Shown here in pieces: positions 2,213 through 7,005 of a stretch of DNA of 7,005 bases (positions are counted from its first letter, which is position 1; each line of letters begins with the position of its first letter). Below the pieces are notes generated by a model that worked only from the letters and a program-made list of their open reading frames with translations, was not told the origin of the DNA and did not search any database. The stretch covers positions 1-7,005 of IMG/VR virus record IMGVR_UViG_3300045988_027194; one strand, 5' to 3'. Position numbers and translations under genes: made by a program. This DNA is from a virus.

Positions 2213-2276
2213 GTGTTTTGCTTTGTGAGCTCTTTGTAATTCCGTATTTTTATATGTGTTTTGCTTAGAGCTCTTT
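2213..2276 (+). repeat. Two copies of an about 22-nt direct repeat (2213-2235 and 2256-2276) in the VP3-like/VP2 intergenic spacer
   Basis: The copies are gtgttttgctttgtgagctcttt and gtgttttgcttagagctcttt. They are identical except for tgt versus a in the middle. Each contains the gagctc palindrome. Confidence 0.8.
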
Positions 2277-2302
2277 TTTATAAATTTGTTTATTTATTAA
2301 TT

Positions 2303-3643
2303 ATGAGTGCTTTAAAAAATATGGCTTCGGGTGCTGCTGCTGGTAGTGCTGGTGGTGTTTGGGGTGCTGCTATTGGTGCTGGTGCTGGACTTCTTGGTTC
2401 TTTTCTTGGTGCTGGTTCGCAAAGTGCTACTAATAAAGCTAATTTACAAATAATGCGTGAACAAAACGCATTTAATGCCCATCAGGCAGAATTGCAACGT
2501 TCTTGGCAACAACAAATGCTGAATAAGTATGGTACTGCTTCTGCTCAGGCTGCCCAATATCGTGCTGCTGGCTTAAATCCTCAATTGGCAAATGTTTCTC
2601 CTCAAGCTGTTGGCACTGGTGCTACTGCTCAGGCTGGTGAATCTATTCCACAACAACCTTTGAATTATTCTGGTATTGGTTCTGCCGTTCAAAATGGTCT
2701 TCAGTATTATCAGCAACAACAAAGTATTGATAATCAAAAAGTTGTTCAATATTCAGTTGCAGCCCTTAATGAGACTCAAGGGGCTTTGAATAAGGCTTTA
2801 GAATTACAATCATATCAAAAAGTTGAAGAGAGTAAACAGACTGTTGCCAATTTAAAACTTGCTTATGATTTTAGCGCTAAAACTCTTGCAACACGTGTTC
2901 GTCAACAGTATTTGCAAGAGGATTTGTTAACATGGCAACAAAATGATATGAAATTTGGTTCTATTACTAAGATGTATGATTTGTTCAATATTAAGCCTGA
3001 AATTGTGCAAAATTTACAATCTTCTACTTTCTTTAATTTTGCGTCTGCTTTTCGTGCAGTTGCTGAAGGTAAAATGACTTTGAAAGAGATCCAATATCTA
3101 CCCAAGAAATATGCTATTATGAATACTATGGCTCTTGGTTCTTATCTTAGTGGTAAAGGTTCTTTACTTGGTGGTTTTGCATCTGTTCATAACGCTAATA
3201 CTTTAGATAGAAATACAAAACCACAGTGGCAATTAGATAATTTTACTACCGATTATTTATTAGGTAAGAAAGGTGATGAAGACGCTTTGAAATATATTAG
3301 AGGTGATGTTCGCTTAAAACATTTGTTAGACATTAATATTGCTAATAATGAGTGGTCTTTGAATAAACTTATGGAAGAGCCTTCTTTAATTCGTAATTTA
3401 GGTCGTAAGTATGCTCAAGAGGGTGCTCTACTTGAAAAAGATAACCAATCTTATTGGACTGATAAAAATATAGACCGTGGTATGAAGTTTGTTGATGCTG
3501 CTACTAAAGCTGTTGATACTTACACTGGTCTTAAGTATGTTAATAAACCAGTCAAGGAAAAGCATAACTATAAATATGATTGGAAAAATGGTAGATGGGA
3601 CCATGAAATTTCGGTTGAAACTACTCGCAGTTCTAAAAAATAA
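2303..3643 (+). CDS. DNA pilot / minor capsid protein VP2 (H-like), 446 aa
   Basis: The ATG at 2303 is preferred over the TTG at 2261. The N-terminus is Gly/Ala-rich and hydrophobic (MSALKNMASGAAAGSAGGVWGAAIGAGAGLLGSFLGAGS). It is followed by a Q/N-rich helical region containing AAGLNPQLA, the pattern typical of Microviridae VP2/pilot proteins. Size and position fit that call. Confidence 0.82.
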   Translation: MSALKNMASGAAAGSAGGVWGAAIGAGAGLLGSFLGAGSQSATNKANLQIMREQNAFNAHQAELQRSWQQQMLNKYGTASAQAAQYRAAGLNPQLANVSPQAVGTGATAQAGESIPQQPLNYSGIGSAVQNGLQYYQQQQSIDNQKVVQYSVAALNETQGALNKALELQSYQKVEESKQTVANLKLAYDFSAKTLATRVRQQYLQEDLLTWQQNDMKFGSITKMYDLFNIKPEIVQNLQSSTFFNFASAFRAVAEGKMTLKEIQYLPKKYAIMNTMALGSYLSGKGSLLGGFASVHNANTLDRNTKPQWQLDNFTTDYLLGKKGDEDALKYIRGDVRLKHLLDINIANNEWSLNKLMEEPSLIRNLGRKYAQEGALLEKDNQSYWTDKNIDRGMKFVDAATKAVDTYTGLKYVNKPVKEKHNYKYDWKNGRWDHEISVETTRSSKK

Positions 3644-3647
3644 ATTG

Positions 3648-3686
3648 ATAGGTCAACATATATGTATTATATATATGTTGACCTAT
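3648..3686 (+). terminator. Perfect 16-bp stem / 7-nt loop hairpin starting 5 nt after the VP2 stop; candidate transcription terminator
   Basis: ataggtcaacatatat (3648-3663) pairs perfectly with atatatgttgacctat (3671-3686). A T-run (ctttttattt) follows only about 15 nt downstream, so this is not a textbook intrinsic terminator. Confidence 0.45.
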
Positions 3687-4111: not shown

Positions 4112-4119
4112 TATTTTTG
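4112..4119 (+). promoter_or_regulatory. Bacteroidota-type -7 promoter box TAnnTTTG
   Basis: tatttttg matches TAnnTTTG exactly, 59 nt upstream of the first ATG of the gene string (4178). Only a weak -33-like element (gTTG, 4089-4092) is present at suitable spacing. Confidence 0.35.
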
Positions 4120-4177
4120 CCATCGAAACCAAGCAGATAACTAAGTTTGCCGTTTCTTACTTTTTAATTTTTCTTTT

Positions 4178-4360
4178 ATGTTGAATTTTAAATTGTCTTA
4201 TGCTGATTACTCTTTATTAATTCAGTGTTTGTTGTCTCGTATGGATACTTTATCGGCTTTAATGCGTTCTGTTGCTGATTCTAATCCTAATCTTTATAAA
4301 TTTTATTGTGATGAGTTTGAGGCTGTTCATGCTCTTTATGTTAATGCCCGTAACATTTAA
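4178..4360 (+). CDS. Hypothetical small protein, 60 aa (predicted helical)
   Basis: The ATG is in ttttATG context, and T3 codon bias is as strong as in the structural genes. This is the first ORF after the non-coding region. I recognise no family. Confidence 0.65.
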   Translation: MLNFKLSYADYSLLIQCLLSRMDTLSALMRSVADSNPNLYKFYCDEFEAVHALYVNARNI

Positions 4361-4371
4361 TTTTTTATCTT

Positions 4372-4581
4372 ATGAACAAAGAAATAATTAAAATTATTAT
4401 TAAGGTCGTTATTTATGCTTTAGGACTTATAGCGACATATCTCGGTATTTCTTCGCTTACTTCCTGCTCCTCTTCTCATAATGTAGAGTCTTCTGGAGTT
4501 ACACGTATTTATGTTACCGATACTACTTTTGTCAAACATAACGGTTTCATTCGTTCTAAAAATTATTTGCCTTATGATTAA
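4372..4581 (+). CDS. Predicted small lipoprotein, 69 aa (38-aa mature peptide)
   Basis: The ORF has a basic n-region (K3, K7, K11) and a hydrophobic h-region (VVIYALGLIATYLGI). The lipobox L-T-S-C places Cys32 at 4465-4467, followed by a Ser-rich linker (CSSSHNVESSG). Its stop overlaps the next start (ATGATTAA). Confidence 0.62.
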   Translation: MNKEIIKIIIKVVIYALGLIATYLGISSLTSCSSSHNVESSGVTRIYVTDTTFVKHNGFIRSKNYLPYD

Positions 4582-4756
4582 ATTTTATGGTTTTGTCTAT
4601 TATGTTTCTATAGGTGATACATGTTATGTTGTTAAGGTTAATCATCTTGACGAATTTATGTCACTTATGCATGGTTGCGGCTCTGTTATTATTTCAGATT
4701 TTGTTAAATCTCAGGTTTGTTTTGATTATGTCTACCAGTGGTACAAGAAAATCTAA
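4574..4756 (+). CDS. Hypothetical small protein, 60 aa
   Basis: This is an in-frame ATG within track ORF 4511..4756. Starting at 4574 gives an ATGATTAA start/stop overlap with the lipoprotein gene, instead of a 71-nt overlap. T3 bias is moderate. I recognise no family. Confidence 0.5.
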   Translation: MIKFYGFVYYVSIGDTCYVVKVNHLDEFMSLMHGCGSVIISDFVKSQVCFDYVYQWYKKI

Positions 4757-4958
4757 TTTTGAACGACCTACATATAATATGTATGTGGCTACTTTGACAA
4801 CTCTTCGGGATTTGTCACGTTGTTCTGCTGCCAAAACTGGTATGTGTCCTACTGTATTGCTTGAGATGCGCCGATATATTGAATTAAATTTCAAATTAGA
4901 TTTTCCTTTTCAGGCAGATTCTTTTATTAATTTAATGTATAATACGTTTGCAGATTAG
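4728..4958 (+). CDS. Hypothetical small protein, 76 aa (59 aa if started at ATG 4779)
   Basis: This is the downstream part of track ORF 4614..4958. The N-terminus is basic (MSTSGTRKSNFERP). The ORF ends 4 nt before the VP4 ATG. The start is uncertain: 4728 overlaps the previous ORF by 29 nt, whereas 4779 does not. Confidence 0.5.
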   Translation: MSTSGTRKSNFERPTYNMYVATLTTLRDLSRCSAAKTGMCPTVLLEMRRYIELNFKLDFPFQADSFINLMYNTFAD

Positions 4959-4962
4959 TTTT

Positions 4963-6573
4963 ATGAAGTATTTTATATCTTGTAACAATCCTATTTTGGT
5001 AAATACTCGAAAGGGTTCTTTTTATGTTGCGTGCCATAAGTGTATCCAGTGCCAACTTACACGTAAAAATATAGATACCCTTTCTTTAGATTTGGAATCT
5101 CAGTACAATTCTAAGTATCAGGAATTTCTAACTCTTACTTTTAATGATGATTGTATTCCTTATCTCGATTTTTCATTTTTAGGTTGTGAAAGTGTAGATA
5201 CCGGCAATTTCTTTTCTGTTGATTCTGTTCTTAATTCTTATAAGTTTTCCAATAATGTTAAAAATCAGATGCCCTGTGTGCCTATTTGTTTTGGTAATCG
5301 TAAAAAAAGAATGTTTAACCCTCGGACTAAAAAATACGTTTTAGTTAAAGATAGATATTTTTCTAAACCTTTTTATAGTCCTTTTTATTCTTCTTTTTCT
5401 GTTAAAGATGTTGTTTTATATAATGATAGAGTTGAAAAATATTTTAAAAAATATCCTCGACGTTCTCGTGGTATTCGTAAACTGGGTATTGTTCCGATTC
5501 TTTGGAAAGAAGATTTACAGAGGTTCATCGACCGCCTCCGCCTCTACTTCAAAAGAATGTTTGGTGATAAAGCCACCTTTAAATATTTTGCGGTTGGCGA
5601 GTATGGAACTGAATCCCTACGTCCGCATTGGCATATTTTATTATTCCACAATTCCGATGCAATTCATAGAATTATTACGTCCTGTGACTCCGATAATAAT
5701 AACAAAAATCTTTCTAAGATTTGGCTCTACGGTAATATTTATACAGAGACCACTGACGGGCATATCTCTGACTACCTTTCGGGATATGTTAATTGCCATT
5801 CTCATCTCCCTGAAATTCTTTCGCCTTATCCACAGAAAAGATTTAAAAGTCTCTTCCTTGGAGAAGTCCGCTCGTACTCGTTTGTATCGTCTTGTCTCAA
5901 AGAAAAGCGATTTTCAGAGCTGTCAACTGTTAGCGTTATTAGTAAAAAAGGAGTTAAATCAGATGTTTCCGTTTCCTCTTCGCTTGTCAGTCGATTACTC
6001 CCAAGATATTCAGGTTATGGAGCGCAAAATGTTGATTCAGTTTATGAAACTATCTCCTGCGCTTATACGGTTTTACAGTCAACGGATTTAAATATTTATG
6101 ATGATTGTCAAATTCATGACTTTTTGTTTTTTTTAATTAAAAATCAATTTCATGGTATTTCACGTTTGGATTCTGCCTTGCGAGTTTTGCAATCTTATTG
6201 TTTAGATGTTGCTTTGCCTGCTTATTTTCGTGCTAATACCCTTAACCCTTTATATTCGTTATTTTATGCAGCTAAAAAATTGTATCGGCTTTCAGCCTTG
6301 TTTAATTTACATCCGCTTACCTACTTACGTAATGTTTTTGACTTTGTTTCGTGGTTAAATTATCAATCACTTATCTCTCATTTTAGTTTGCTTGAGATTG
6401 ATTATAATTTTGCTTATGAATATTACTCATGTATTTCTAAACATACTGGTATTTATAATTTAGACGTTTTACGTACACGTTCCCTTTTCCAACGTCAACA
6501 AATTGATGCTGCGATGTCTTGGGATTGCTGTATTAAACATAAAACCGTCTCTGATTCTTATAATGATTATTAA
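4963..6573 (+). CDS. Replication initiation protein VP4 (A-like HUH rolling-circle endonuclease), 536 aa
   Basis: The ATG at 4963 is preferred over the TTG at 4948. An N-terminal Cys cluster reads CHKCIQC. Motif 1 is FLTLTF (5125-5142). The HUH motif lies in GEYGTESLRPHWHILLFH (HWH at 5626-5634). The catalytic double-Tyr motif YLSGYVN (5773-5787) parallels the YVAKYVNK site of phiX174 protein A. Confidence 0.93.
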   Translation: MKYFISCNNPILVNTRKGSFYVACHKCIQCQLTRKNIDTLSLDLESQYNSKYQEFLTLTFNDDCIPYLDFSFLGCESVDTGNFFSVDSVLNSYKFSNNVKNQMPCVPICFGNRKKRMFNPRTKKYVLVKDRYFSKPFYSPFYSSFSVKDVVLYNDRVEKYFKKYPRRSRGIRKLGIVPILWKEDLQRFIDRLRLYFKRMFGDKATFKYFAVGEYGTESLRPHWHILLFHNSDAIHRIITSCDSDNNNKNLSKIWLYGNIYTETTDGHISDYLSGYVNCHSHLPEILSPYPQKRFKSLFLGEVRSYSFVSSCLKEKRFSELSTVSVISKKGVKSDVSVSSSLVSRLLPRYSGYGAQNVDSVYETISCAYTVLQSTDLNIYDDCQIHDFLFFLIKNQFHGISRLDSALRVLQSYCLDVALPAYFRANTLNPLYSLFYAAKKLYRLSALFNLHPLTYLRNVFDFVSWLNYQSLISHFSLLEIDYNFAYEYYSCISKHTGIYNLDVLRTRSLFQRQQIDAAMSWDCCIKHKTVSDSYNDY

Positions 6574-6583
6574 ATATTTTTTT

Positions 6584-7005
6584 ATGAAACGTTCTGATAT
6601 TGTTGGACTTCATCGTATTAAAAATAAGGTTTCTCGCAATTCGTTTGACCTTTCTCATCGACACATGTTTACCGCTCAGATTGGTGAAATTTTGCCTATT
6701 TTTTCTGAGTGGGTTAATCCTGGTGATACCTTAAAACTTGGTTATAATGGTCTTTCTCGTACTGCTCCATTGCAGACTGCTGCATTTACACGTTTAAAGG
6801 AGAATGTACAGTATTTTTTTGTCCCTTTCCAGTCTCTTTGGAAGTATTTCGAACAGGTTGTAACTAACATGACTGAGGGACAAAGTGGTGAAAATATCTC
6901 TAAGTTTGCTGCTTCTGCTTCTACTGCTGATAAACTTGGTACTTCACTTCCTTATATTGGTTATTTGGATTTGATTAAGGTTATTGATGCGCAACTTTCT
7001 GCTTG
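6584..7005 (+). CDS. Major capsid protein VP1 (F-like), N-terminal part; runs off the window end and continues at base 1
   Basis: ATG at 6584 lies 10 nt after the VP4 stop, and the frame is open to the window end. Translation: MKRSDIVGLHRIKNKVSRNSFDLSHRHMFTAQIGEILPIFSEWVNPGDTLKLGYNGLSRTAPLQTAAFTRLKENVQYFFVPFQSLWKYF... This has the typical Microviridae MCP N-terminus (FDLSH, PGD, R..P, YFFVP..LW). The frame (6584 mod 3 = 2) equals that of the 15..1718 ORF after subtracting 6950. Confidence 0.93.
   Translation, partial: MKRSDIVGLHRIKNKVSRNSFDLSHRHMFTAQIGEILPIFSEWVNPGDTLKLGYNGLSRTAPLQTAAFTRLKENVQYFFVPFQSLWKYFEQVVTNMTEGQSGENISKFAASASTADKLGTSLPYIGYLDLIKVIDAQLSA
6951..7005. repeat. Terminal redundancy copy 2 (identical to 1-55)
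   Basis: Exact 55/55 match to bases 1-55. It lies inside the open capsid reading frame that starts at 6584. Confidence 0.9.

Follow-up and report, generated by a model that had tools for sequence, protein, structure and literature searches.

The stretch of DNA analysed here (the window, 7,005 nucleotides) is IMG/VR virus record IMGVR_UViG_3300045988_027194. Its bases 1-55 are identical to bases 6951-7005, and the window therefore represents one complete, circular microvirus genome of 6,950 nt, with all genes on the + strand. The subject of this analysis is a small gene, termed LPP, that encodes a 69-residue prolipoprotein and that we propose, as an evenly balanced judgement, to be an envelope-disrupting lysis lipoprotein exported into the envelope of a Bacteroidales host. 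The gene and the parts of its product are located as follows.

4372-4581 (stop included), + strand: LPP gene, an ATG open reading frame (ORF) of 69 codons, encoding a 69-residue prolipoprotein
4372-4464, + strand: residues 1-31, the signal peptide, in which a Lys-rich n-region precedes a long hydrophobic helix (YALGLI..Y.G)
4456-4467, + strand: lipobox L29-T30-S31-C32, with Cys32 the predicted site of lipidation and of signal peptidase II cleavage
4465-4578, + strand: mature lipopeptide of 38 residues (32-69), Cys32 included
4477-4557, + strand: beta-hairpin predicted by AlphaFold2 (AF2), strands 36-47 and 51-62, with invariant G42, D50-T51-T52 (tip) and H56 and near-invariant G58

The sequence of the LPP protein, the precursor signal followed by the mature part, is MNKEIIKIIIKVVIYALGLIATYLGISSLTSC and SSSHNVESSGVTRIYVTDTTFVKHNGFIRSKNYLPYD. 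Lysines occupy positions 3, 7 and 11, the hydrophobic core (h-region) extends from residue 12 to 29, and the protein combines the sequence attributes of a bacterial lipoprotein signal: a charged n-region, an h-region, and a lipobox of the form [LVI][ASTVI][GAS]C with its Cys between positions 15 and 35. The PROSITE rule PS00013, which asks for a Cys at position 15-35 and a Lys or Arg among the first seven residues, matches LPP at Cys32 and none of the other ATG ORFs of at least 40 residues in the window genome, of which there are 23 including LPP; shuffled genomes yield 0.06 matches each. The only hydrophobic segment of LPP is N-terminal (Kyte-Doolittle 19-residue maximum of 2.23, the only transmembrane-grade segment in the window genome), and the C-terminus is polar and basic. 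The first-pass annotation had described a 69-residue ORF with a lipoprotein signal, the lipobox LTSC, Cys32 and a 38-residue mature peptide, and both the ORF and the PS00013 rule bear this description out.

LPP belongs to a large family. Protein searches returned at least 400 clusters at 90% identity; the 120 matches listed are 69-94% identical to LPP and almost all come from microvirus-sized contigs. When 1.84 billion representatives were searched with a profile, 110 clusters at 50% identity emerged, every one a small protein. Both the Cys and the core motif are retained in 135 of 135 microvirus-type and in 118-119 of 120 podovirus-type homologues, and in 87-89 of the 110 representatives at 50% identity, several of the others being truncated or mis-called ORFs. 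By tblastn, LPP was found in 18 microvirus records of GenBank, which come from samples of dogs, humans, lemurs, pigs and chickens; 13 of the records have no annotated feature beneath the match.

To quantify selection, 65 distinct microvirus LPP genes were compared by the pooled Nei-Gojobori method. The synonymous divergence (dS) is ~1.0, with synonymous sites near saturation, and the ratio of nonsynonymous to synonymous divergence (dN/dS) is 0.33. Because dS is so high and the invariant residues are encoded by two to six synonymous codons (six for S31, two for C32), the constraint must act on the protein and not on the DNA. Off-frame ORFs of these T-rich genomes are often hydrophobic, and LPP might be such an ORF, arisen by chance; however, hundreds of homologues conserve its frame, length and motifs at the dS and dN/dS just given, which refutes that explanation and leaves it a negligible likelihood.

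Two further claims of the first-pass annotation, that LPP has codons less biased to third-position T (T3) than its neighbors and that it is a recently acquired moron, did not survive. T3 is 0.58 in LPP, compared with 0.66 in the gene for the major capsid protein (MCP), 0.56 in a conserved 155-residue ORF (O155), 0.56 in the pilot protein gene and 0.54 in the replication gene Rep. When LPP codons were redrawn from the usage of the large genes, the probability was 0.07 for low T3 and 0.16 for high third-position GC (GC3), and 69-codon windows within Rep and the pilot gene are often less T3-rich than LPP, so that its codon usage is ordinary. In the same genomes, LPP is 46-74% identical to its counterpart in the window, against 24-53% for MCP, 23-40% for Rep and 24-39% for the pilot protein, and it is the best-conserved protein of its clade. 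In a sample of 64 loci (at least 6 kb) chosen by their capsid gene and blind to LPP, 55 carry it. The conservation, the clade-wide presence and the strong purifying selection together rule out a recent moron; the gene is old and near-core in its clade. That LPP is conserved across such divergent MCP and Rep proteins, with dN/dS as low as it is, also points to a conserved host target.

A further indication that the protein is lipidated comes from the 68-member family alignment, in which the Cys is invariant and the signals that precede it range from 14 to ~40 residues and are unrelated in sequence between subfamilies. Many relatives have short signals that end in SSC, ASC or SAC at positions 15-21, and others have long N-termini. 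Distant relatives with signals of 14-20 residues, for example MKPLILILISFLSSC and MKQLILFLALIAVGLASC, share with the window protein only the lipobox Cys and the mature motif. Family-wide, the only invariant or near-invariant features are the Cys, a Gly exactly 10 residues later, the D-T-T, the His and the near-invariant Gly, within a mature part of 33-40 residues that has a median net charge of +2. Lipidation and cleavage by signal peptidase II are the best explanation for a Cys that is conserved at the end of a signal otherwise free to vary, and on this comparative evidence LPP is very probably a lipoprotein.

Within the microvirus subfamily, the signal region is itself more conserved than the mature peptide (entropy of 0.72-0.75 versus 1.1-1.7 bits), and dN/dS by region is 0.18 for residues 2-28, 0.09 for the lipobox, 0.65 for the linker, 0.35 for the core and 0.90 for the tail. 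This pattern raises the alternative that LPP is an unlipidated, bitopic inner-membrane protein (N-in, C-out) with an active helix, either a holin-like permeabilizer or a "protein antibiotic" in the manner of phiX174 E that binds an enzyme of cell-wall synthesis. Besides being the most constrained part of the microvirus protein, the helix contains small-residue motifs (A16, G18, A21/A22, G25) and resembles free-standing families of 29-31 residues, "smalltalk" and DUF6486. A 42-residue ORF consisting of one hydrophobic helix, without lipobox or hairpin, is present in two LPP-negative loci (L143, 4186-4314; L140, 3911-4039), and its first ~26 residues match the N-terminus of the LPP variant P0353. 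On the other side, many family members have signals of 14-20 residues, which are too short to span the membrane and therefore are not membrane anchors, yet they keep the Cys and the mature motif. The helices of the podovirus subfamilies differ from the microvirus helix and are unrelated to it, whereas the lipobox Cys, the 10-residue spacing from Cys to Gly, and the hairpin are invariant. We consider a bitopic, unlipidated protein rather improbable. The idea of an active helix and that of a lipoprotein are nonetheless compatible, and a functional helix that is cleaved later is part of the best explanation: from the selection pattern, the conserved 31-residue signal helix is probably membrane-active itself, before or after cleavage.

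Structure prediction by AF2 with the 68-sequence alignment gave a helix at residues 3-31 (predicted local distance difference test score, pLDDT, of 86-95) followed by a long beta-hairpin, with a mean pLDDT of 82 and values of 86-89 for residues 41-60; with a shallow alignment of 31 sequences, AF2 gave no fold for the mature part. A Foldseek search of the predicted structure against PDB and BFVD gave no match at E < 0.1. The long hairpins in the stems of pore-forming toxins and in the TraT lipoprotein appeared at E = 4-7, which is non-significant and a lead only. A profile search of PDB sequences found no LPP relative, and the window LPP has no match above the curated cut-off in Pfam, PHROGs or NCBIfam. 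Its resemblance to the NCBIfam "smalltalk protein" is sub-threshold (E = 0.007, 16.1 bits against a cut-off of 24.7) and covers profile positions 1-28/29. Pfam DUF6486, a helix of ~30 residues, matches six of 68 relatives with a best E of 4e-8, and one of these, the microvirus protein P0290, lies above the cut-off (25.1 bits, cut-off 22.7). Three members of the family gave sub-threshold matches to the YgdI/YgdR lipoproteins (E = 0.003-0.06), which we treated as a resemblance of signal peptide and composition and set aside. The D50-T51-T52 at the tip of the hairpin (4519-4527) fits D-[ST]-[AILMTV], the general O-glycosylation sequon of Bacteroidetes, and distant variants at this site are mostly compatible with it (DTL, DTI, DTV, DST); judged by this motif, LPP may be glycosylated at the hairpin tip.

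LPP is not confined to microviruses. Homologues are also found in many phi29-like podoviruses of ~11-11.8 kb from gut samples (L066-L070, L076-L118, L121, L122 and L124; for example, L068:710-907 and L124:527-688), which carry a protein-primed DNA polymerase B, a Gp16 ATPase, a connector and a Phi29-type MCP. Two podovirus-type LPPs searched by tblastn against GenBank phages gave no match. The distribution indicates that the LPP family has been exchanged between microviruses with single-stranded DNA (ssDNA) and podoviruses with double-stranded DNA (dsDNA), which belong to two unrelated virus realms. Among 185,579 species genomes, LPP was found at only two loci, one of which is a prophage, so that the gene is phage-specific. 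Phage specificity combined with movement between two virus realms argues for a self-contained, host-directed function, as opposed to one within the virion.

The prophage, L013, is a microvirus with LPP, Rep, MCP and pilot genes within a 174-kb Bacteroidaceae contig, flanked by a peptidase M13 gene and a 2-hydroxyacid dehydrogenase gene, and is consistent with the known Bacteroidetes proviruses of the Alpavirinae group (PMC3394797). An LPP-bearing microvirus on an 11.3-kb contig (L014, CAVBFV010000077.1) is binned in a "Lachnospiraceae" metagenome-assembled genome, an assignment that is probably a binning artefact and no evidence of host.

In microviruses, LPP always lies between the pilot and Rep genes, and in the podoviruses it occupies four contexts. 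It is the neighbors of LPP in some of these genomes that connect it to lysis. In three podovirus lineages, a Peptidase_M15_3 gene is followed by LPP, with a 2-nt gap in L072 and a 4-nt ATGA overlap in L074 and L124; between these lineages, identity is 57-59% for the M15 proteins and 36-42% for the LPPs. In the near-complete L124 genome, M15 and LPP form the only + strand unit, at one genome end. In the microviruses L004 (Dulem virus 260), L042 and L048, the gene immediately upstream of LPP encodes a signal-less DUF5675 protein, and the two genes overlap by 4 nt in L004. The DUF5675 genes, which encode an H...GC motif and occupy the slot upstream of Rep, are located as follows.

L004, 3649-4041: DUF5675 gene
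L042, 3024-3386: DUF5675 gene
L048, 414-788: DUF5675 gene
L149-L153: further DUF5675 genes

By structure, DUF5675 has been grouped with the C82 (YkuD-type) peptidoglycan peptidases as a set of lysin candidates (2026 preprint), and the DUF5675 proteins described here are candidate C82/YkuD-like peptidoglycan peptidases. The only peptidases of Microviridae reported in the literature examined are M15. Of the microvirus genomes of at least 6 kb, 6 of the 10 that lack LPP have a lysin candidate (DUF5675 in L149-L153, M15 in phiHBP1), compared with only 3-4 of the 79 that carry it, counts that reflect few independent evolutionary events. The lysin candidates occupy the same pre-Rep slot. We considered whether LPP supplies export of the lysin and rejected this, as the DUF5675 proteins of LPP-negative microviruses have not gained a signal peptide. 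In both L004 and the window, LPP is the sole protein with a transmembrane-grade hydrophobic segment.

Searches of the window with Pfam, PHROG, and M15 and DUF5675 profiles recognized no E-like protein, amidase, peptidase or other lysin, in agreement with the first-pass annotation, which had seen no lysis gene elsewhere in the genome. The only isolated Bacteroides microvirus found, Bacteroides phage phiHBP1 (L166, PV598014) of Bacteroides fragilis, has a signal-less M15 gene after Rep and no LPP homologue. Two GenBank notes of "similar to peptidase", in L007 (MG945185, 1444-1764) and L011 (MG945327, 1572-1865), refer to acidic ORFs of ~100 residues after Rep that match neither the Peptidase_M15 nor the DUF5675 profile; the annotation looks unreliable, and these candidates were discarded.

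The first-pass annotation had left the choice between lysis and superinfection exclusion undecided. The lysin-gene adjacency in related phages makes lysis the better supported of the two, and exclusion the weaker. As an exclusion or receptor-masking factor, LPP, anchored in the outer membrane, would obstruct either a surface receptor or the entry of DNA, like Llp of T5 or Cor of phi80/N15, protecting the infected or lysogenic cell and sparing progeny from adsorption to debris. Small phage lipoproteins with such a role are generally known (T5 Llp, Cor), LPP is the first phage gene beside host DNA in the Bacteroidaceae prophage, and most podoviruses have it at an early-type position, clustered with replication genes at the left end. 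In contexts B and C of the podoviruses, LPP is convergent with a tail-type gene encoding 514-522 residues, and one of 68 family members has a weak PHROG match to Cor (E = 0.0016), which is at chance level. Against this, LPP is highly conserved over microviruses that share only 24% identity in the capsid, with which they adsorb, and over podoviruses with unrelated tails; since a masking protein would be expected to track the receptor, this conservation across unrelated adsorption proteins speaks against receptor masking. The gene is near-universal in its clade, not sporadic, and selection on it is purifying, not diversifying. Moreover, the LPP start overlaps the stop of signal-less lysin genes, and the presence of LPP is anticorrelated with lysin genes of the same slot. 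We regard exclusion as unlikely.

Other envelope functions are less likely again, among them modulation of the host surface or of outer-membrane vesicles, a periplasmic step in genome delivery or assembly, and inhibition of host defense. The constant position beside Rep in microviruses and the lack of similarity to known lysis proteins would be in keeping with such roles, as would the fit of D-T-T to the O-glycosylation sequon, which suggests a glycosylated envelope protein with possible other partners. However, the presence of LPP in two structurally unrelated virus types argues against assembly or delivery, and none of these roles explains the repeated coupling to lysin genes.

We therefore return to the proposal that LPP disrupts the host envelope at lysis, which is argued for by the repeated coupling to two unrelated lysin families, by the shared genomic slot, by the transfer between realms and by a level of conservation that implies a conserved target in the host. 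As we picture it, the N-terminal helix would insert the precursor into the inner membrane, and Cys32 would be lipidated and signal peptidase II would cut before it, as the lipobox and its family-wide conservation suggest. The 38-residue mature peptide, predicted to fold into a long beta-hairpin whose D-T-T tip and His are invariant, would stay lipid-anchored on the periplasmic side, probably in the outer membrane, where it would accumulate and destabilize the envelope. In phages that encode a cytoplasmic lysin (Peptidase_M15_3 or DUF5675), genetically linked to LPP as described, LPP may act jointly with the enzyme. In the window genome, which encodes no recognizable lysin, LPP would be the main lysis factor or the only one; because the window contains neither a lysin nor a further membrane protein, lysis may here depend on LPP alone.

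Several observations weigh against this proposal. The window has no recognizable lysin, so lysis here cannot be explained by a mechanism that is purely spanin-like and gated by peptidoglycan. In most podoviruses (context A), LPP belongs to the small-gene cluster at the left end, which precedes the genes for the terminal protein and DNA polymerase, and does not adjoin a lysin gene. Both phiHBP1, with M15, and the L149-L153 clade, with DUF5675, manage without LPP. LPP has no sequence or fold similarity to any characterized lysis protein. Finally, adjacency in genomes of 6-15 genes has limited statistical weight, and the few independent events behind the presence-absence counts have been mentioned.

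Among known systems, the colicin-release lipoproteins (bacteriocin release proteins, BRPs) offer a closer analogy than the spanins. BRPs are very small lipoproteins of small mobile replicons that act alone on the envelope and release cytoplasmic cargo. Their mature part has ~27-35 residues, their signal peptide, besides being unusually conserved and stable, adds to their lethality, and their mechanism is the activation of outer-membrane phospholipase A. The mature part of LPP is of similar size (33-40 residues), and its signal helix is strongly constrained, as the BRP signal is conserved. In contrast, the host phylum is different, the mature part of LPP is a conserved, predicted beta-hairpin with an invariant D-T-T...H, and neither the window LPP nor any of the 68 members matches the Pfam family Lysis_col at E <= 0.1.

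LPP resembles the o-spanin Rz1 of lambda in being a small phage lipoprotein of outer-membrane type whose gene follows an endolysin gene in some relatives. This endolysin-cassette location applies to L072, L074 and L124 (M15) and to L004, L042 and L048 (DUF5675), but not to the window or to the context-A podoviruses. The mature part of Rz1 has 40 residues (PMC6139136, which also defines o-spanins and u-spanins), 10 of which are Pro, compared with one Pro in 38 residues of LPP. LPP is usually without a periplasmic Cys and is predicted to be structured rather than disordered, and the window genome has no endolysin for a spanin to follow. Unlike for Rz1, no gene for an i-spanin, with its N-terminal transmembrane segment and periplasmic coiled coil, is embedded in, overlapping or adjacent to LPP, and no ORF in another frame encloses it; the three small ORFs neighboring LPP in the window (O60up, O60dn and O76, described below) and the podovirus neighbors all lack a transmembrane segment. 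The u-spanins of the T1 gp11 type combine a lipoprotein signal at the N-terminus with a periplasmic part rich in beta structure, and they have no partner protein (PMC6139136). LPP shares these three traits, but it has no C-terminal transmembrane domain, and with so few mature residues it could not nearly reach across the periplasm. The i-spanin partner and typical proline-richness of an o-spanin and the C-terminal transmembrane domain of a u-spanin are all missing, so that LPP lacks the defining features of both.

With Llp and Cor, LPP shares the form of a small phage outer-membrane lipoprotein and, in some podoviruses, the convergence with a tail-type gene; it differs in being conserved across phages with unrelated adsorption proteins and in its linkage to lysin genes. 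No sequence or fold similarity to Llp or Cor was found beyond the single Cor PHROG match (1 of 68 members at E = 0.0016), and PDB and BFVD gave none at E < 0.1. LPP and phiX174 E are alike in that the genome is tiny, a single small protein is targeted to the membrane and, for the window, an endolysin is missing. E, an unlipidated transmembrane protein whose gene lies within gene D, inhibits MraY, whereas LPP has a free-standing frame, a lipobox and a conserved core outside the membrane.

A more far-reaching version of the lysis proposal, which we put forward only tentatively, is that LPP represents a new class of single-gene lysis effector, composed of a membrane-active signal helix and a lipid-anchored, possibly O-glycosylated hairpin. 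It is equally speculative that the hairpin oligomerizes in the outer membrane or attacks it and so suffices for the release of endolysin-less Bacteroidales microviruses. In the phi29-like podoviruses, with which the gene has been exchanged, LPP would be a partner-less substitute for a spanin.

The remaining features of the window genome are the following.

6584 across the junction to 1718, + strand: MCP, ATG at 6584, 694 residues, Pfam Phage_F
+ strand: O155, 155-residue ORF, conserved in 60 loci
2261-3643, + strand: pilot protein, matches PHROG pilot families
Between the pilot gene and the small-ORF cluster: AT-rich non-coding stretch, GC 0.23-0.28
4116-4119 and 4142-4149, + strand: Bacteroides-type promoter-like pair, TTTG and TAAGTTTG, ~30 nt upstream of the small-gene cluster
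4178-4360, 4372-4581 (LPP), 4574-4756 and 4728-4958, + strand: small-ORF cluster
4178-4360, + strand: upstream 60-residue ORF (O60up), the first ORF past the non-coding region, of uncertain status
4574-4756, + strand: downstream 60-residue ORF (O60dn), ATG at 4574, overlapping the end of LPP (stop at 4579-4581) by 8 nt
4728-4958, + strand: 76-residue ORF (O76), between the LPP/O60dn pair and Rep, conserved in the closest relatives only
4963-6573, + strand: Rep, from an ATG, Pfam REP_ORF2-G2P

Rep probably starts at this ATG and not at TTG 4948 as given by the ORF finder. A megablast search among GenBank phages found no relative of the whole window at the DNA level; relatives with the same small-gene cluster and LPPs that are 91-94% identical are found on metagenomic contigs of 6.9-7.0 kb. 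O60up gave no tblastn match in any locus and is unconserved in sequence even among close relatives, which have an ORF of 57-60 residues at the equivalent position. Homologues of O60dn with 33-40% identity occur in the same overlapping position in 43 loci, and the layout is the same in the close relatives L159-L163. O60dn has no Pfam or NCBIfam match; it is probably translationally coupled to LPP and may be its functional partner. O76 is 82-83% identical in L159-L163.

The promoter-like pair at 4116-4149 is a lead only, because the count of the promoter motif in the window (17) is not above chance (12.4 +/- 3.3). In many microvirus relatives (L001, L005, L008, L015-L037 and others), the Bacteroides -7 promoter motif occurs as TATCTTTG, followed by CACC, and ends 4 nt before the LPP start codon; the position of the motif suggests that the LPP mRNA of those relatives is leaderless or nearly so. 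In the window, TTATCTT immediately precedes the LPP ATG. The -7 motif in the form TATCTTTGCACC is present in both microviruses and podoviruses, in the latter at the left end (L068, ~225-245). A perfect 14-nt inverted repeat, AGGTCAACATATAT and ATATATGTTGACCT with a 7-nt loop, lies at 3650-3684, 7 nt past the pilot stop codon, where the AT-rich non-coding region starts, and could be a terminator or an element of replication or integration.

For lysis by microviruses outside the phiX174 group, the one candidate that Roux et al. 2012 could name was an M15 peptidase, present in a minority of genomes (PMC3394797). The first-pass annotation had placed lipoproteins outside the known gene repertoire of Microviridae, and the searchable literature agrees, in that we found no paper on a Microviridae lipoprotein or on the LPP family. 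LPP, mostly without annotation in the GenBank microvirus records, is a concrete lysis candidate for a large clade of gut microviruses of Bacteroidales, and it is also common to an abundant group of ~11.5-kb gut podoviruses. If LPP lyses cells by itself, it would be the first single-gene lysis protein of lipoprotein type and would indicate that a part of the Bacteroidota envelope is both conserved and vulnerable. If its role is only to assist lysins, it would be a partner-less outer-membrane disruptor in a phylum whose spanins are poorly known. Either way, LPP documents the exchange of genes between ssDNA and dsDNA phages that have a common host.

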